DNA of 63,580 bases, the filler included, from a bacterium (GTDB lineage: Bacteria > UBA9089 > CG2-30-40-21 > SBAY01): the NCBI GenBank assembly GCA_040757115.1. It is 15 parts of 15 records of this genome, joined end to end, with 100 filler letters (N's around TTAATTAATTAA, not from the genome) between each part and the next. Parts side by side here need not be neighbours in the genome. Positions count along the whole stretch, not along the records: positions 31,590 to 32,874 come from JBFLYA010000446.1; 14 more parts are not named here. The stretch is one strand, 5' to 3'. Within the stretch, counting starts at the first letter, position 1. Each line of letters opens with the position of its first letter. Shown one piece after another: positions 8,255-55,622 of the stretch. The position numbers and the translations under genes are program-made. The notes beneath the pieces were generated by a model that saw only the letters and a list, made by a program, of their open reading frames with translations, ran no database searches and was not told the DNA's origin.

Positions 8255-8611
8255 GTAACTATTCACCACGAAGGACACGAAGAAAATTATAAGACATATC
8301 TTTTCGACCTGTGAAATAGGTTTAAATAAAATGCAAGAAACAGCGAAATACTACAAACAGATTGCTCCTACGGAGCTTTATTCATATTAGCTCCAGAGGA
8401 GCGATATGTTTGTAGAAAAATTATTTCCCTCATAACAAATTAGCTCCATCGGAGCGAGCTGTTTATTCTTTTTCTCACCCTAATTGGGGGATATTTGTAG
8501 CCCTATTTCACAGGTTGAAAAAAATTTGTAGTTATTGTCAGACACTACCGAAAATTACAAGACATTAAATTCCATTTCGTGTCCTTCGTGTTCTTCGTGG
8601 TGAATAGTTAC
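8255..8611. mobile_element. Composite miniature element (GTAACTATTCAC ends) with a nested CGACCTGTGAAATAGG element and GCTCC..GGAGC palindromes
   Basis: 19-bp perfect terminal inverted repeat (TIR) GTAACTATTCACCACGAAG; inner inverted pair at 8305-8320 and 8502-8517. Confidence 0.75.
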
Positions 8612-17900: not shown

Positions 17901-19725
17901 TCTTAAGGAAAGCCTCTGCAAGACAATCAGGAAACTTACTGTCATCCCATAAAAAATCAGCCGTATCACAAGCAGCGCCAAAGACAACAGGCAATTTATC
18001 ACTATTATAAAGGCTATTTACCTGTCTAACTGAAAACGGTGATTCCGTATTCATCGCCCACCCTAAAGGATGTCCATGTCCATTATAGGTTACTAATAAG
18101 TGACCATCATTAATTGCTTCAACAACTATTCCACCTGTACCTGTTTCTTCGATCTTAGTTACTTCAAACCCCCCAGGTAAGAGATAATAATTTATTAAGG
18201 CATCAAAGTCACCACCAAAACCTTTTCCATCTACCATTAAAACTTTATTCCGCCACTTTCCTGGTATAGGATTTTTTTCATATTCGATTATCTTGTTAAC
18301 CATCACCTTTGTGTCTGTTCCAGATTCTACAGGCAGTCGACCTATCATTATATCCATTGTCCAGTATTCCCAAGATAGACTTTCATCATTGATACAGACA
18401 TACCAAGTATCAGCTACTGGTTCACCTATATAGGGATATATCTCTCTAAGAAACTTTGGAGGTACATAGGAAAAATACTGTTTCTCACCATCTCCAAAGA
18501 TAACTACATAGCCAAGATGGTTATCTTCCATAGAAGGAGCAGACCAATTGTTATAGACATATTTGATAAAATCTTTGATAGAAGTAGTCGTTCCTTTCTC
18601 AGTAATAGGGAATTCGTTGTAGATAGCGGTGGTATTGACTATTGCGACATTGAAGCCGTTGTATTCTGCCCGATGCTCGGCTAATCTTCTTAAATCTTCG
18701 TTATTGTAGAATCCCTCAGAGGTAATAATCAGATAATCCGCAGAGTTTGCTGGGTCTTTCAGGTTGGTGATGTAGCTTAATGTTCCTGTTCTTTTAGTGG
18801 TAAGTGGTAAGTGGCGAGTGGTAAGTGGTTTGTAGTTTAAGAGTGTGTGTTTTAATACATTGGCAAAAGGTGAAGCCATCTCTGGTTGTTTTAGTGATAG
18901 AGGTACTCCCTTTTTACGCAGGTAGTTTATTTCTATCTTCAGGTTAGGATAGATTCTGAGTTCTTTTTTTGCAGGGTTGAATTGGATGGGATATATTTCT
19001 AACCTTAAGATGCGCTGGTCACGGATGTAGCCGATGGAAGCAATCTTACAAGGGTAATTGGGTAATTGGGTAATTGGGTAATTGTGCTTCGCAACACTCT
19101 TCGAATTGGGTAACTTCTTTGATTCTTCAGATTTTTCTCCCAGATAAATCTGGGAGTCCGGAGTCCTCAATTTATTGAGGGTTTCTCGATTCTTCAGTCC
19201 TTCAGTCTCCATAGGATACCAGATGTCCTGCTTGTAAAACTCTTCATCTATGAAAAATTCTTCAGCAACATATTTGTAGCCCTCTGGGGTGGTTTTTACT
19301 ACTTGCTTGGGGACAGGAAATATGACAATGGGTGAATGGGAGAATGGGTGAATGGGTGATGGGGAAGTAGAAGAGATTGAAATCTCTACGCCATCCGGGA
19401 TGGCAAGCATTAACTGGATTACGGGTAGTTTAGGTTTGCCGACTTCCTGAGTAAATCTGTATTCATGCCCTGGAATACTCAAAATCTGAAATGTCTCTGT
19501 TCCTTCACTCCGAGCTCCGAGCTCCAAGCTCCGAGCTTGCTTCACATTCACACCAAACACATTCGCTTCGAGCGTAATGCCTGAGCTATCATCCTTGACT
19601 ACCTCAATCTCTGGCGGAGTAGGAGAAGATACACCTTCTTTAAATGGCAGCCAGGTGCTTGCATAGGTGATACTTGAAAAGAGTATTAAGTTAATGCATG
19701 CAATAATTATCGTTTTATATATCAT
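11914..19725 (-). CDS. Giant secreted C25 cysteine peptidase, paralog of 317-8209
   Basis: Same architecture; catalytic YNGHG and AACDTAD; C-terminal part nearly identical to copy 1. Confidence 0.88.
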   Translation of the reverse strand: MIYKTIIIACINLILFSSITYASTWLPFKEGVSSPTPPEIEVVKDDSSGITLEANVFGVNVKQARSLELGARSEGTETFQILSIPGHEYRFTQEVGKPKLPVIQLMLAIPDGVEISISSTSPSPIHPFSHSPIVIFPVPKQVVKTTPEGYKYVAEEFFIDEEFYKQDIWYPMETEGLKNRETLNKLRTPDSQIYLGEKSEESKKLPNSKSVAKHNYPITQLPNYPCKIASIGYIRDQRILRLEIYPIQFNPAKKELRIYPNLKIEINYLRKKGVPLSLKQPEMASPFANVLKHTLLNYKPLTTRHLPLTTKRTGTLSYITNLKDPANSADYLIITSEGFYNNEDLRRLAEHRAEYNGFNVAIVNTTAIYNEFPITEKGTTTSIKDFIKYVYNNWSAPSMEDNHLGYVVIFGDGEKQYFSYVPPKFLREIYPYIGEPVADTWYVCINDESLSWEYWTMDIMIGRLPVESGTDTKVMVNKIIEYEKNPIPGKWRNKVLMVDGKGFGGDFDALINYYLLPGGFEVTKIEETGTGGIVVEAINDGHLLVTYNGHGHPLGWAMNTESPFSVRQVNSLYNSDKLPVVFGAACDTADFLWDDSKFPDCLAEAFLKKENGGAIAYWGASAGTTDGIIYPIKAYQFMAEYSYNSFSLGELTLNSYNYLWQHEWNMLGDPALTISRAGLEQNKPELEIEPIDINFNPNFPRPNEKTKISAIIHNLGDTDAADVLIKFFLGDPVNGVEIGSKTITTIYAKGRETTEINWIPDLPIGEYKIYVVIDPYDTIPEAETINNTAYKSIEVNIYQQGWTKIPQPLSFRIQVSPAVGDIDGDGDLEVVSAVTGNYLYIWHHNGDFVDNWPKLITVEENGDIAGTPILADMDNDNKLEIIISGRKRFYVLNHDGSNVPGFPKEGTNSNSPAIGDIDNDGDLEIVVEMNDKLYTWHHNGTLVDGDWPKEINLQGGYHPIIADIDKDGNHEIIAFSTEGKVYVLQSDGELAPGQWPKTIPYPDGFPDVFAVGNIDSDDELEIIIASYQSPKIFLYALNYDGSDVFGYPKQVGGNDYNVSYSVILGDIDNNGDMEVIIDTCNYLYVLNHDGSNVTGWPKAGSQRGPSHPLISDMDNDNQFEVIESIYYMKKGTITIWNNDGTQKLNLLMKPEDRRTSPLVIADIDLDGDVEVICAGEEFMHIAWAIPKVYIWDYEGKCEKGALEWPMANHDIRRTNCYNTDIVPPSRITDLKALNPKPTSISLTWTAPGDDKDKGSSTCYYIRCATFTITPQNWHLTNKATSTIVPKDAGSPESFTVPNLCPTTTYYFCIRARDDDFNLSPLSNITFATTLSPAMIILVSPTRGVVGKQVTISGCNFYPTETIRIEFGNTTTIALSTCVGGSFTTTFTVNDQGFGTITITAYGLISGYEARASFYITGVEYFLFGTISSPQIAGTGFQIKMTAYDEFGDVVLNFKDKVGLSDLSQTIQPTITSNFTGGIWDGTVSITRAGTTAITAGYQSKTGTSNPFYVQPGEPFKFLVYPENPVYILAGGSVSITAQLSDVYGNAVGSAGISCNLEVVVLSGKAGTLSATTTTTTNTGQIATITYWVSPNANDKVRIKLLSTLPPAISGTITTSSGELAMFTFDTIATQTAGMNFPIKITARDAYENPIPFTRTVTLIDLSNSLKPTQTTSFIDGMWNGSGSITVRGTTSITVIYGDIRGTSNTFWVCGGEVEYFVISSITTQTAGISFPVSINAYDRWRNIADMFNSSATLTDTSRTISPPKTTNFSLGIWDGTVSITRAGTSAITASYQGKTGTSNPFFIIPSSLDHFLIGTITNQTAGIDFSVVITAKDTYNNTVTSFTDKVQLEDTSLTLNPKLTTNFMAGIWDGIGSITRAGTTAIMAGYQGKTGTSNPFLVSHNSLAHFLIGTISNCVAGVPFPITIMAQDSYGNTMLNFSDKVQLEDTSLSLNPKLTTNFVAGIWDGIGSITRAGTTAITAGYQEKTGTSNPFLVSHNRLDHFLIGTISNCLAGIPFPITIMAQDSYGNTMLNFSDKVQLEDTSLSLNPKLTTSFVAGIWAGIGSITRTGTSAITAGYQGKTGTSNPFLVQAGSLSLIEVMPESVTLMPDESQLFTSRGYDGNGNEKEVENGKWEVGNEIGNLSNIFGTMTTFTAGTKAASGIIKVSAEEVIGTANIRIVPGKLAKITILPKEVVVEVAGTSTFTAYGYDKYGNEKEVGNGKWEVGSELGELTNVIGTNTTFVAGTKSGEGILTCRVEQIQGSASITVRSGRVNRFDFDPINHQIINTKFGIKVTALDRYGNLASDYNHTGSLTTNFGQIKPARITFYNGIEIGTVTIETNRAAPDVHISIRAESIESQSNDFAVLYDDASNVKVEEGGLKIDIKSHSVSKDYYLKIDKPGLDEDEIKIANLRMNHYNPGFCLLTDTIIRIVAKDGDKRPIEGDFGTRTTRMIIYYHQPPKNVAEETLKLYILDEESIESRWVEVANAQVLVGNNFVYGDVPHFGTFILIGEGIAAGFDGVVVYPNPFKPSRGDENIVFEGLPEDTQIRIYDISGSLVKDEEGKRATWIWDVRNNYGKKIDSGVYIYVLTTGDGKKKTGKIAIIR

Positions 19726-20087
19726 AATGGAATTTAAATTGAAATATAATTAAAATACGATTGAAATATATTGTTTTTTTTCTGCCAAATTCCATCTATT
19801 TCTACATATTTCTATTATATTTCCACCAATAAATATACCATAAAATAATACAGAAGTCAATTAGAAAAGCAACTAAAGGATTAAGAAACTGAAGGACTGA
19901 ACAAGAAAAATCGCCACGAAGACACAAAGGCACAAAGGAAACACAAAAAAACATAGTTTTAATCTTCGTGTATTAGTAACTTAGTGGCAATATTACAAAC
20001 AACCCTCAATAAATCTGTTCCTGACAGAGCCTGCTCCTGATAGGTTTCAGAAGTTCAGGAATTGAGGATTCCGAAACCATAGATAAA

Positions 20088-20135
20088 AAGAAAGACCTGA
20101 TTCTTTCCGGCCGAAAAAGAAATCAGGTCTCTCTT
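20088..20135 (-). terminator. Probable intrinsic terminator
   Basis: AGACCTGATT..AATCAGGTCT stem downstream of 20175-20831. Confidence 0.5.
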
Positions 20136-20174
20136 GTTTAATTAGGATACTCCTAGCTATTTTTATTCATACAT

Positions 20175-20831
20175 TTATGGTGTGGGTATGAATGAAAGTG
20201 TAATGTAGAATACATCCTCGTATATATCCATTGGGTCATTCTCTCTAATAACAATTCTTGCCCATAGGTCTTGGTTATACTTTACTCGCTTTCCATCCAC
20301 ACATGGTAATGGAGTTCCTGGCATATCACCATTAAAAGCTGGTGCAAGTGTAAATGAACCTTTACTTGGTTCTCTCCCACTTGGAGTTGCCATCGCATAG
20401 TATGTTGTAAGTGTCGCATTATCCGCATGGTTTCTCTTTACATGGTCACACCCTGATACTGCTATCTTTAGAGAGTGTGTACTTGTTGCAATTGCTGATA
20501 CATGGATATTCGTCCAGTTAATCATATAATCGTTACCTGGTATCATTCTCCCGTCCCACTCAAGATGGTCATCATCAATATCTACATACATACATGCTCT
20601 TCCATTAAAAGTATGCGTCATAGTTGCTACCCATGGTCCTGCACATTCCTTTTCATATGGAGTATTTTCACCTTTACCCCAAGCATAGGGATAAGCTGAT
20701 TGAGGTGGTGGAGTGTATCCGTCTTCTGGTGTAAAGAATGCTGCAGTAGCTTCTGCATAAACTGTAGTTGTGTATCCTCCTGTAATCAACACGCTAAGAG
20801 TAATTAGAGTAATAGCTAATAGATTCTTCAT
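20175..20831 (-). CDS. Secreted hypothetical protein, paralog of 8728-9369
   Basis: Shared motifs VDIDDDHL.W, NDYMI.WTNI, SGCDH, GSFTLAPAFNG, YNQDLWAR. Confidence 0.85.
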   Translation of the reverse strand: MKNLLAITLITLSVLITGGYTTTVYAEATAAFFTPEDGYTPPPQSAYPYAWGKGENTPYEKECAGPWVATMTHTFNGRACMYVDIDDDHLEWDGRMIPGNDYMINWTNIHVSAIATSTHSLKIAVSGCDHVKRNHADNATLTTYYAMATPSGREPSKGSFTLAPAFNGDMPGTPLPCVDGKRVKYNQDLWARIVIRENDPMDIYEDVFYITLSFIPTP

Positions 20832-31589: not shown

Positions 31590-31660
31590 ATAGTTTTGAG
31601 AATTTCTCCTGATAAATCAAATGAATTTGGTTTTGGACCACGTGGATATCTTTTTTGCAT
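31590..31660 (-). CDS. Hypothetical protein N-terminus (partial)
   Basis: GGAGG RBS then MQKRYPRGPKPNSF.. running into the gap. Confidence 0.45.
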
Positions 31661-32069
31661 AATTCTTTCCTCCTTAAAATTTCTATGCCCACGTGGAATT
31701 ATCGTCATTTTATCAGCAAAACTTTAGAAAAAACTGTGAAAAAATTTACTTAACACAGTACTAGACTGGACACCAAATGAACAAAAGTTGCTATTGTTGG
31801 TTTAAAGCAAGATATTTCATGATGGGACTCCTTTTATTTTAGATTTTGTTATATCAGTATAACATACCTGTCAATCTATTAAAGGATGCCCGTCTTTACA
31901 TATTATCAATTTCCTAGCAGTTAAAAATGTTATTTCCTTAGTGGATGAGTGCGGAGTGTGGATTGGTATATTAATCATGCAGAATTATCCTATTTTCTGT
32001 ATATCATGTAAAAAGTAATGATAACCAGTTAGAATTATACAGAATTTATTTGTTTTTGTCAAATTTTTT

Positions 32070-32599
32070 CGACCTGGGAAAACAAAATTATACTCCACTG
32101 CTTGGTGTAAGAAAAGGAGATAGGGAGATTAAGGAGATAAGGGGATATTATTCTAATTCCACTCTTCTAAAATCTACCTTTTCTTTAGCAAAGTTTACAA
32201 GAATAGCCATCTTTACACCTGTAGCTTTTAAATATGAGCGAACCTGAGCATAATGAGCTTTGCTTAATTCCTCCACCGTTTTTAATTCTACTATTACCTT
32301 GCTTTCTACAAGAATATCCAATCTGTGTTTCCCAATTTCTTCTCCTTCGTAGTAGATTAGTATTTCTTTCTCTGTCTCAACTCTCAATCCCTGTTTTGTA
32401 AGTTCAATTACCATTGCCCTGCGGTAAATACTTTCCAGAAAACCTGGATCCAGTGTCTGGTGTACCTTAATAATACATTGAATTATTATCTCAGTAAGTA
32501 AATTTTCTTGATATTCTTTTGATATCTCCATATCTCCTTTATCCCCTTATCCCCCTTCTTATACTAACCACGATCAAAATATTCCTATTTCACAGGTCG
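32070..32599. mobile_element. Non-autonomous element carrying an intact GxxExxY gene
   Basis: Ends CGACCTGGGAAA / TTTCACAGGTCG; AATTTTTT on both flanks (32062-32069, 32600-32607); inverted GGAGATAAG arrays on both sides of the gene. Confidence 0.75.
32148..32531 (-). CDS. GxxExxY protein (PD-(D/E)XK-like)
   Basis: VH..L.PGFLESIY, RLDILVE.KVIVELK, AQVRSYLKAT..LVNF. Confidence 0.92.
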   Translation of the reverse strand: MEISKEYQENLLTEIIIQCIIKVHQTLDPGFLESIYRRAMVIELTKQGLRVETEKEILIYYEGEEIGKHRLDILVESKVIVELKTVEELSKAHYAQVRSYLKATGVKMAILVNFAKEKVDFRRVELE

Positions 32600-32608
32600 A
32601 ATTTTTTC

Positions 32609-32637
32609 TTGACCTTTTGAGGCTATTGTGTTAAAAT
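32609..32637 (+). promoter_or_regulatory. Sigma70-type promoter upstream of the 27/28-nt array
   Basis: TTGACC-17 bp-TAAAAT. Confidence 0.5.
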
Positions 32638-32670
32638 ACAGAAAACTATATAATAACTTGTTAGCCCGCT

Positions 32671-32874
32671 GCGAAGAAACAGACTCAGAACGTAAGTGGC
32701 GAAGAAGTAGCTTGGAACAGGAGCAATGAAGAAGTGGTTCGGAGAGGAAGTGGCGAAGAAGTAGAGTGGAGCAGAAGCATCGAAGAAATGGACTCGGAAC
32801 GGAAGTGGTGAAGAAGTATCCTGGAGCAGAAATAGCGAAGAAGTAGCTTGGAAGAGGAGCAGCGAAGAACCAGA
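32671..32874 (+). repeat. Degenerate tandem array, period 27-28 nt, at least 7.5 units (cut by contig end)
   Basis: Invariant GAAGAA in units starting at 32671, 32699, 32726, 32753, 32780, 32808, 32835 and 32862. Confidence 0.9.
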
Positions 32875-35949: not shown

Positions 35950-36189
35950 GTAACCGTTCAGGATATAGCCACAGAGTCACAGAGAACACAGAGGAAATAT
36001 ATAACCACGAATGAACACAAATACAAAAAGATTTGTAGTGCGAGGCTTTGGCCTCGCTTCTGGCAAGCCAAAAGGCGAACCTAAAGGTTCGCACTACATT
36101 TATGGGATGTCAGAGGTTAATTCGTGTGCATTTGTGGCTAATTTCCTTAATTCTCTGTGAACTCTGTGCCTCTGTGGCTGAACGCTTAC
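35950..36189. mobile_element. 240-bp MITE with an internal REP doublet
   Basis: TIR GTAACCGTTCAG; target duplication CGAAAAGG; homologous to 55381-55622 and 58057-58298. Confidence 0.9.
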
Positions 36190-36692
36190 CGAAAAGGAGA
36201 TATGGGGATTATGGAGATAAGGAGATAAATTCATTCTAAAATTTTGCAAATTACAATGAATAATCTCCATATCTCCCTTTATCTCCTTATCCCCTTTTGG
36301 ACACCAAATCTGCATAGATTTCACTATTAGCGTTATTTTCAGCCACCACCCAAAAATTCAGGGTGTGAGGTTTTGAGCAAGGCTTCTCGAATGCCGCTAA
36401 TTTCCTGCATAAATAGAGTCTATAGTCTTGTGTCTGATGTCCAGTGTCTGAATCACAGAATTTCCAACATAAAACTTGACAAACTAATGGTTATTTGCTA
36501 AAGTATACCCAAATAAATTGAGTTTGCAAATATTTTGCTCTAAAAAGGGATCAAGGATTCGAGGGGTCAAGGATTCAAGGGAGATGAAAAATAAGGTGCT
36601 CACTCGACCCCTGGAGCCCTTGACCCCTTGAATCCTTTCAAGAAAGTTTTTGCAAACCTGTTTTCTTTGAGTATATAATCTGGAGGGAAGTT

Positions 36693-55380: not shown

Positions 55381-55622
55381 GTAACCGTTCAGGGATATAG
55401 CCACAGAGTCACAGAGAACACAGAGGGAATATATAACTACGAATGAACACGAATAATAAAAAGATTTGTAGTGCGAGGCTTTAGCCTCGCTTCTGGCAAA
55501 CAGGAAAGCGAACCTAAATGTTCGCACTACATTTATCGAATGTCACAGGTTAATTCGTGTCCATTTGTGGCTAATTTCTCTAATTCTCTGTGAACTCTGT
55601 GCCTCTGTGGCTAAACGGTTAC
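55381..55622. mobile_element. 242-bp MITE with an internal REP doublet
   Basis: TIR GTAACCGTT; target duplication GATTTTAG. Confidence 0.9.

Follow-up and report, generated by a model that had tools for sequence, protein, structure and literature searches.

The 63,580-nucleotide stretch of DNA analysed here (the window) belongs to a bacterium of the SBAY01 lineage (GenBank assembly GCA_040757115.1) and consists of 15 contigs joined end to end by N runs with a TTAATTAATTAA linker. The region 32070–32599, situated in a contig of 1285 bp (window 31590–32874), is probably a non-autonomous miniature inverted-repeat transposable element (MITE), or mobile insertion cassette (MIC), carrying a gene of the GxxExxY family and inverted GGRGAT-type arrays as a passenger module. 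The element is a real insertion that duplicated its 8-mer target, and element-free alleles of the same site exist. A preliminary description of the window had proposed an intact GxxExxY gene between inverted arrays, enclosed by CGACCTG..CAGGTCG ends with AATTTTTT on both flanks and with no transposase inside, and all of these features are present where it had put them, the only open reading frame (ORF) being the 127-aa gene. Genome-wide counts were taken from G001, the nearest genome available for comparison, a metagenome-assembled genome (MAG) of 4.7 Mb in 770 contigs, which has 40% of sampled 31-mers in common with the window and is 94–98% identical to it in aligned stretches. The features of the element and its immediate flanks are as follows.

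32034–32062, minus strand: promoter-like site (12/12) directed away from the element and with the -35 box abutting the target 8-mer; consensus match only.
32062–32069, no strand: left copy of the target-site duplication, AATTTTTT, read directly.
32070–32599, no strand: inserted element of 530 bp, transposase-less and bounded by terminal inverted repeats (TIRs), with the GxxExxY gene as sole ORF; from the sequence, the arms and the empty-site comparison.
32070–32083, plus strand: left terminal repeat CGACCTGGGAAAAC, a degenerate form of the family end; from the inverted-arm search and comparison with G001 copies.
32110–32147, plus strand: array of ~4.6 GGAGATA-type 8-nt words (period 8) directly 3' of the stop codon, with ATCYCC words on the gene strand.
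32148–32531, minus strand: GxxExxY/PDDEXK_3 gene, 127 aa; from profile matches, catalytic residues and a model.
32522–32557, plus strand: opposite array of 3–4 words, period 8–9, spanning the start codon and the bases just upstream, with GGRGAT on the gene strand; from the arm search, while a repeat finder gives 32523–32557.
32584–32599, plus strand: right terminal repeat CCTATTTCACAGGTCG, which is the TIR (16 bp) of a MITE family specific to the lineage; from G001 copies compared with a control.
32600–32607, no strand: right copy of the target-site duplication, AATTTTTT, read directly.
32609–32637, plus strand: promoter-like site (10/12 with TG) reading away on the other side; consensus match only.

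The array arms (32113–32148 and 32522–32557) are 36 nt long, inverted and 81% complementary, and the inverted similarity continues outward from them to the terminal arms (32068–32081 and 32588–32601; 14 nt, 93% complementary), with CGACCTG at 32070–32076 and CAGGTCG at 32593–32599. The arrays are short and degenerate, with Tandem Repeats Finder (TRF) scores of 33–46, under the usual threshold of 50. Besides the GxxExxY gene no transposase-like ORF of at least 40 aa was found in the 530-bp element, and the 1285-bp contig gave no Rfam match at E up to 1. The site itself is intergenic, with a promoter-like -35 box on either side of it (consensus matches only), the two standing back to back and pointing outward.

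An empty allele with a single 8-mer, which the preliminary description had looked to as a sign of insertion, was found both in G001 and in metagenomic contigs. In contig C220 of G001 the left flank passes through a single ATTTTTTT into the right flank and the element is absent. The stretch is also matched by DNA runs labelled groundwater metagenome and by no listed RNA run, and when Logan contigs of three runs (X1, X2 and X3) were compared with it, the sole listed contig of X1 on the left flank (depth 454) joined 32061 to 32600, skipping 538 bases (530 + 8), three contigs of X2 joined the flanks without the element, skipping 538, 538 and 562 bases, and X3 had no contig on the stretch. Since G001, X1 and X2 hold the empty form, filled and empty alleles coexist in the habitat or among close relatives. 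Two more copies of the window type, 95–96% identical, are present in G001 (C101 and C32).

The 16-mer end CCTATTTCACAGGTCG occurs 45 times in G001, compared with 2 for the reversed control, and eight complete elements have this end on both sides. These are 213–547 bp long with very different contents; one is a sister of the window element and the others hold unrelated hairpins or nested elements. Sister copies carry a perfect 16-bp TIR. The window itself contains a gene-less member of the family, recognised by its ends:

8305–8517, no strand: 213-bp gene-less member of the same family with CGACCTGTGAAATAGG ends, unrelated contents and no clear duplication.

Among nine complete or near-complete copies, the window copy counted, the 8-bp duplication is perfect in five, agrees at 7/8 in two and is missing from two, and the five perfect ones all differ (AAATTTTG, AAAAATTT, AAAGATTT, AAATATTT and AATTTTTT). 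An 8-mer starting with AA adjoins 34 of 37 distinct ends (consensus AAANNTTT), which is a strong target preference. A scan of one genome per species (596 Gb) returned 96 loci with the 16-mer, mostly single and about as many as estimated by chance; several copies were found in only one other MAG, unclassified, and the family is therefore regarded as lineage-specific. The CGACCTG ends are, on these sequence comparisons, those of a separate MITE family mostly carrying other contents, which goes against the preliminary description as worded.

There is also a second type of chassis. Many cassettes and gene-less hairpins of G001 end in GGTAAGCGTTCAGG or GGTAACCGTTCAGG, the ends starting with GTAAGCG or GTAACCG, and GGTAAGCGTTCAGG with at most one mismatch gave 301 matches in G001 against 1 for the control. 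At the loci examined 46 complete GTAA-type elements of 117–798 bp were counted, one of which is invalid because an N linker runs through it; the 8-bp duplication is perfect in 20 and agrees at 7/8 in two more. Two gene-less elements of this kind in the window are:

35950–36189, no strand: 240-bp gene-less GTAA-type element with duplication CGAAAAGG, followed by a small GGAGATA-array hairpin at ~36190–36300.
55381–55622, no strand: 242-bp element without a gene, having ends of GTAACCGTTCAGG type, arrays of CACAGAG and an 8-bp duplication, GATTTTAG; in contig C334 of G001 it is missing from the orthologous site.

The inverted repeats of IS66 begin with GTAAGCG and yield 8-bp direct repeats, according to the portions of PMC11946415 consulted, and passenger-carrying forms (tIS66) are described in the corresponding portions of PMC11946415 and PMC12888890. 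A 1505-bp insertion sequence (IS) in G005, whose source belongs to the same order, encodes a 468-aa IS66-family TnpC between perfect 13-bp ends, GTAACCGTTCACA, and this end recurs in G011. Matching ends and duplication length thus link TnpC to the GTAA-type elements, a link that we infer from sequence. The 63.5-kb window yielded no TnpC. The ends of the window element start with CGACCTG and not with GTAAGCG, while its direct repeat has the 8 bp expected of IS66. Metagenome contig L272 holds an intact gene of the window type (85% identity) in a GTAA-type element with duplication CTTGACTT, and since the window type occurs with both CGACCTG and GTAA-type ends, the module of arms plus gene is found in two unrelated chassis.

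When copies with a damaged gene are considered, the gene itself proves to be cargo. The window-type copies in C101 and C32 of G001 have an identical 188-bp deletion within the gene, C101 with a duplication of its own, and the same deletion junction is present in a contig of run X1. Likewise, a truncated GxxExxY derivative of the L001 type, retaining only codons ~38–51 to 115 (approximately the last 65–78 codons), is present at nine G001 loci, and in five of the nine copies it is framed by perfect and distinct 8-bp duplications. The 16-mer of the GGAGATA array has 164 matches in G001 (21 for the control), and despite these no intact cognate gene of the window type was found there. In all, G001 has 75 GxxExxY matches, 17 full-length and open and 58 partial, which is a birth-and-death pattern. 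Gene-dead copies with fresh duplications, together with the other contents carried by the same ends, imply movement without the gene in cis, and from these comparisons the GxxExxY gene is a passenger and not the transposase. The earlier proposal of a mobile or selfish cassette is thus upheld as regards a bounded, transposase-less and mobile unit (filled and empty alleles, 8-bp duplications, many copies), but a need for its own gene in cis is contradicted by the moved dead copies.

The features described above are those of MITEs and MICs, defined in the text available from PMC3129680 as transposase-less units with IS-type inverted repeats that are moved in trans by a cognate transposase: the window element has TIRs, an 8-bp duplication, no transposase, many copies, deletion derivatives and both filled and empty sites, and for its GTAA-type sisters a related genome has an IS whose ends match. 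It differs in that the passenger belongs to an uncharacterised nuclease family with its own conserved inverted word-arrays, and in that this module is found in two or more unrelated TIR chassis, though more commonly with no recognisable chassis. The likeness to IS66 lies with the sister elements (GTAAGCG/GTAACCG ends, 8-bp duplications, and the single-ORF IS with GTAACCGTTCACA ends in G005), whereas the window element has CGACCTGTGAAATAGG-type ends, a strong preference for AAANNTTT and no TnpC in the unit. The element inserted at a AAANNTTT-type 8-mer between two divergent promoter-like sites, duplicating the 8-mer. On our reading a DDE-type transposase whose gene lies elsewhere would have acted on it in trans; for the GTAA-type sisters the candidate transposase is an IS66-family TnpC. 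The most likely ligand of the arrays would be the encoded nuclease, which may act on the arms of its own cassette (maintenance, copying or processing) and not as a transposase.

Inverted arms are a regular companion of these genes. In the control for inverted repeats (n = 171, 130-nt flanks) the 95th percentile was 20, while the main scoring in G001 was made with 160-nt flanks. All 18 intact GxxExxY loci (17 in G001 and the one in the window) have inverted arms flanking the ORF with scores of 25–58, and 15 of them still score at least 30 with 130-nt flanks; across 14 further genomes from the phylum the control threshold is exceeded at 22 of 27 loci. The expectation that other GxxExxY genes would also have inverted arrays was thereby borne out. 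The word differs by locus (for example CGCAGAG, CACGAAG, CACAGAT, CACAAAG, ACAGGAT, GTAAGTC and GGGAGTTTA). The architecture is shared with a second family, the four-helix-bundle '23S IVS protein' (IVS, intervening sequence; TIGR02436), for which all 16 loci examined out of 38 matches in G001 are flanked by inverted arms with scores of 30–85. A recognisable TIR chassis is present at 7 of the 18 GxxExxY loci and at 3 of the 16 four-helix-bundle loci (G001 and window), so that defined TIR ends, expected earlier as a general property of GxxExxY genes, are not one. In the other genomes both GTAA-type ends were found at 3 of the 27 loci, none of the three with a duplication. G001 has 32 strong GxxExxY matches and is an outlier in the phylum (0–5 in 23 other genomes); it also has hundreds of MITE ends, and its excess of matches fits amplification after capture by a MITE chassis. 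A periodicity metric for arrays, tried on 52 GTAA-type elements, reached the threshold in only one and missed known arrays; the array words being degenerate, the metric was uninformative.

The encoded protein matches TIGR04256 (GxxExxY) with 136.6 bits (cut-off 35, E 4.7e-40, positions 2–115 of 116) and PF13366 (PDDEXK_3) with 133 bits (cut-off 22, E 8.5e-39). Residues G30, E33, Y36, D72, E82 and K84 are intact, and invariant in 18 paralogues, and dN/dS is 0.06–0.22, which indicates a gene under purifying selection with an intact PD-(D/E)XK site. In the AlphaFold model (mean confidence, pLDDT, 94.3) the fold is a generic PD-(D/E)XK core. Its closest solved structure is Cas4 SSO0001 (4ic1_G; Z 10.2, root mean square deviation 3.2 Å over 99 residues), other PD-(D/E)XK chains giving Z 6–8, and since restriction-enzyme-like domains and the Hjc resolvase come close behind (Z 7.6–8.0), no specific activity can be inferred. 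With Cas4/RecB-like proteins (SSO0001, PDB 4ic1) it has in common the core fold and the E...D...ExK site, but it is of 127 aa as against ~200 aa and there is no CRISPR context at the window gene; PADLOC, PHROG and Pfam gave only weak Cas4 matches. A PDB search with the single protein sequence gave no match and a profile search nothing better than E 0.15, while an Atlas search returned GxxExxY clusters only. Homing endonuclease genes sit in their own recognition site, usually inside an intron or intein, and around the window gene there is neither. Both GxxExxY (PDDEXK_3) and the '23S IVS protein' with its four-helix bundle form very large families whose genes are tiny, and neither family has a known function.

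The array word appears to follow the protein subfamily. In 14 relatives of the window protein (56–85% identity, from metagenomes and genomes of the phylum, GC of the coding sequence 0.29–0.60) GGRGAT words are found 5' of the gene and their complement 3' of it, the GGRGAT/ATCYCC counts being 7, 5, 5, 9, 3, 0, 5, 8, 2, 9, 1, 10, 7 and 8 (at least 5 in 10 of the 14; the three loci of lowest information are cut by contig ends), compared with 0–1 in 14 loci of other subfamilies. The word is kept where dS is 0.7 to >2. In strict arm alignments of 50 loci the non-complementary positions comprise 59 sense-G:U, 55 antisense-G:U and 189 others, close to the random 1:1:4. A sense-strand G:U bias seen in duplex energies (261 versus 142 pairs) was discarded as a composition artefact, given the 59 and 55 of the strict alignments. 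Because there is no G:U excess and the word tracks the subfamily across GC, the arms behave as sequence-specific DNA sites, presumably tied to the protein subfamily and not merely forming an RNA stem. That the GxxExxY protein itself binds the arrays is a serious candidate explanation for this, only just short of being an even prospect. The earlier suggestion that the protein may bind or cut the arrays thus gains indirect support from the way the word tracks the subfamily in hosts of very different GC.

An alternative that concerns the arms is an intervening-sequence design at the RNA level, in which they would pair in the transcript, a stem cut by RNase III would excise or insulate the ORF, and the stem would be under selection; we consider this unlikely as an account of the element. 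In the sense RNA of 32062–32608 a long-range stem does close the whole ORF (minimum free energy -135.7 kcal/mol, z -4.0, none of 100 shuffles as good), the Coxiella IVS is, in the text available from PMC4990558, a 428-nt element with an ORF and a 28-bp stem of inverted ends cut by RNase III, and a crude duplex comparison had come out for the sense strand at 24 of 34 loci before it was superseded by the strict alignments. A selected RNA stem should however be wobble-rich, and the mismatch counts given above show no such excess; the word is conserved across hosts as sequence, beyond complementarity; the element is intergenic between divergent promoter-like sites, none of which reads in; and the 23S rRNA of G001 has group I introns but no such cassette. 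(In G001, contigs C83 and C77, loci L261 and L262, each have part of the 23S rRNA gene, in which there are three Rfam group I intron matches.) An RNA design is nevertheless compatible with transposition of a passenger module, as it concerns the role of the arms after insertion.

The 23S rRNA IVSs of Coxiella burnetii and Leptospira, with their S23p ORF, resemble the window element in size (~0.4–0.5 kb), in having one small ORF within stem-forming inverted repeats and in their sporadic distribution, as far as they are described in the portions of PMC4990558 consulted, and in G001 the genes of the S23p family (TIGR02436) are framed by arrays in the same way. The window element differs by lying outside rRNA, and thus not in helix 9, 25 or 45, by encoding a PD-(D/E)XK protein and by arms that are made of tandem words without wobble-type covariation. 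It also has direct evidence of DNA transposition, which is absent from the IVS literature as covered in those portions; there, ORF-bearing rRNA IVSs have long been suspected to be remnants of transposition or mobile elements with an ORF aiding mobility, their origin having been open since the early 1990s. Tandem words are also known from Xanthomonas and Nostoc as heptamer repeats, which according to the available text of Rehm et al. 2015 (PMC4692102) are abundant, intergenic and G-rich (GGGNATC-type 7-nt words in variable unit number), favour the spaces between convergent or co-oriented ORF ends and are treated as G-quadruplex-forming. They differ from the arrays described here in that this text connects them neither with inverted arms and enclosed genes nor with TIRs and target duplications.

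Less probable still is a self-mobilising nuclease element, in which the GxxExxY protein would recognise and cut the inverted arrays and so drive transposition or homing, the gene-less hairpins being its targets or derivatives. The intact PD-(D/E)XK site under selection would suit such an element, as would a subfamily-specific word found in hosts of GC 0.29–0.60 and conserved at dS 0.7 to >2, arm mismatches resembling the divergence of DNA sites and not of an RNA stem, the presence of the arms-plus-gene module in two TIR chassis and also without a chassis, and the enclosure of unrelated short loops by the same arms. Against it, the 8-bp staggered duplications and TIRs are common to elements without such a gene or such arrays, fresh duplications are found at gene-dead copies, and G001 has 164 cognate arm matches with no intact cognate gene, filled copies being far outnumbered by gene-less hairpins. 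That a four-helix-bundle protein, unrelated to the nuclease, occupies the same architecture is also hard to square with a nuclease-specific mechanism. A related and speculative idea, which we would not expect to hold, is that GxxExxY proteins are word-specific nucleases for their own arms (iteron-like) and that the module copies into cognate hairpins, with the arms as recognition sites and homology arms, while hitch-hiking on MITE chassis, the 23S IVS being one landing place. A chance or assembly artefact (coincidental short ends and 8-mer repeat, or a 1285-bp contig that is a chimera of repeats) is very improbable, for although the contig is short and largely made of dispersed repeats, the target 8-mer is of low complexity and the listed Logan contigs bridge the empty form alone, a chimera would need both of its joins to fall at one and the same 8-mer, the flanks run collinearly with the empty site in the independent genome G001, sister copies carry differing 8-bp duplications and the 16-mer end is 20-fold above its control.

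Several observations weigh against the interpretation as a MITE with a passenger module. The filled junction is attested solely by the repeat-built contig of the window itself, the lack of a bridging contig among those listed being taken as uninformative. The left end of the window copy is short of the outermost 17 nt found in G001 copies C101 and C734, and for that reason the copy may no longer be mobile. No transposase with CGACCTGTGAAATAGG ends was found in G001, a MAG in which IS copies collapse, or in the scan of one genome per species, and the neighbours of unpaired CGACCTG-type ends are heterogeneous with none recurring (Y1_Tnp, a DDE_3 fragment and an ORF without Pfam match; diaminopimelate-decarboxylase-like and pantoate-ligase-like genes, as read from translations, were also seen there). 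As to the IS66 link, the IS of G005 has no clear duplication of its own, and TnpC in G001 is present only as fragments, the contig with a partial TnpC starting with GTAATTGTTTACC, an end that is similar but not identical. Consensus matching gave no promoter-like site upstream of the gene inside the element. No recognisable TIR chassis was seen at 11 of the 18 GxxExxY and 13 of the 16 four-helix-bundle loci, and since most intact cassettes lack one, the spread of the array-plus-gene module itself is left unexplained by these transposons. Finally, instead of binding by the protein, co-descent of the whole cassette under another constraint on the arms could account for the link between word and subfamily.

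Further observations concern these families and their surroundings. A REP/REPIN-RAYT origin (repetitive extragenic palindromic sequences with their associated transposase) was considered for the CGACCTG-type ends, as the 16-mer with TCG can form a 6-bp hairpin in most copies and Y1_Tnp lies beside one, but it was rejected on account of the 8-bp direct duplications, which the REP/RAYT mechanism is not known to make. The Y1 gene in question, IS200-like (PF01797, E 8e-23), is located at 1748–2209 of G001 contig C108 (L072), next to an end of CGACCTG type; GCTCCTACGGAGC palindromes abound inside the element there, so that a separate REP/RAYT-like system may be nested in these elements. The GxxExxY element of contig C327 (L001) sits within a paralogue of an ORF of 288 aa that has no Pfam match, with ~80 codons lost and no duplication, and an intact copy of that ORF lies 46 nt inside a CGACCTG-type end in C80 (L067). 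Hairpin elements are at many loci nested like Russian dolls (for example L025, L073, L088 and window 55381–55622), with outer arrays, inner arrays of another word and a central hairpin, and newer elements sit with 8-bp duplications in the loops of older hairpin elements.

Other differences between G001 contig C334 and the window were seen in the same region. At ~17190–17400 of C334 (L264), opposite window ~55690, there is a hairpin class with AATGGGTCA ends, AGTAGGAA-type arrays and the 10-bp duplication ACCTCTACAG, present in G001 and absent at the orthologous site of the window. At 18652–20177 (L264/L265), opposite window ~56930, C334 has a 1.5-kb insertion that the window lacks, with TTACCAG-type arrays abutting it and two ORFs of 253 and 200 aa that, read from their translations, resemble a nucleotidyltransferase pair of the AbiEii/AbiEi type. 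In the 1285-bp contig a dispersed repeat at 31762–31927 is 88–99% identical to stretches in C312, C412, C211 and C279 of G001 and joins others there, which makes the contig mostly a mosaic of repeats. A purine-rich tandem array of GCGAAGAAG type occupies 32659–32874 and runs off the contig end (periods 27, 55 and 109; TRF score up to 254). It begins ~25 nt past a promoter-like site, has stop codons inside and matches no Rfam family; in C171 (L031) and C492 of G001 an array of this type runs on for ~300 nt. Six contig ends of the window (~24668, 27265, 27472, 30041, 35797 and 60207) lie within copies of GGAGATA-array mini elements, and these elements therefore act as assembly break points.

In the literature searched, supplements aside, no paper turned up that describes GxxExxY cassettes or deals with their arrays or how they move; GxxExxY is named in 3 papers and PF13366/PDDEXK_3 in 2, in the cases examined only as a list entry or in passing. 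New in this study are the paired filled and empty alleles of an element with an intact gene, counts of target duplications, dead copies that moved, IS66-type ends with a matching IS, a wobble test against a role in RNA only and the link of word to subfamily across GC. The locus is an unusually clean natural experiment, combining an intact cassette and its duplication with empty alleles in the same habitat, moved dead derivatives and sisters of the IS66 type. It suggests that such cassettes travel by ordinary DDE-type transposition in trans, with a transposase that is as yet inferred, and this would connect a widespread and unexplained family of mini-genes to transposition, while the subfamily-specific word turns the question of protein function into a bench test on a defined array of 8-nt words.

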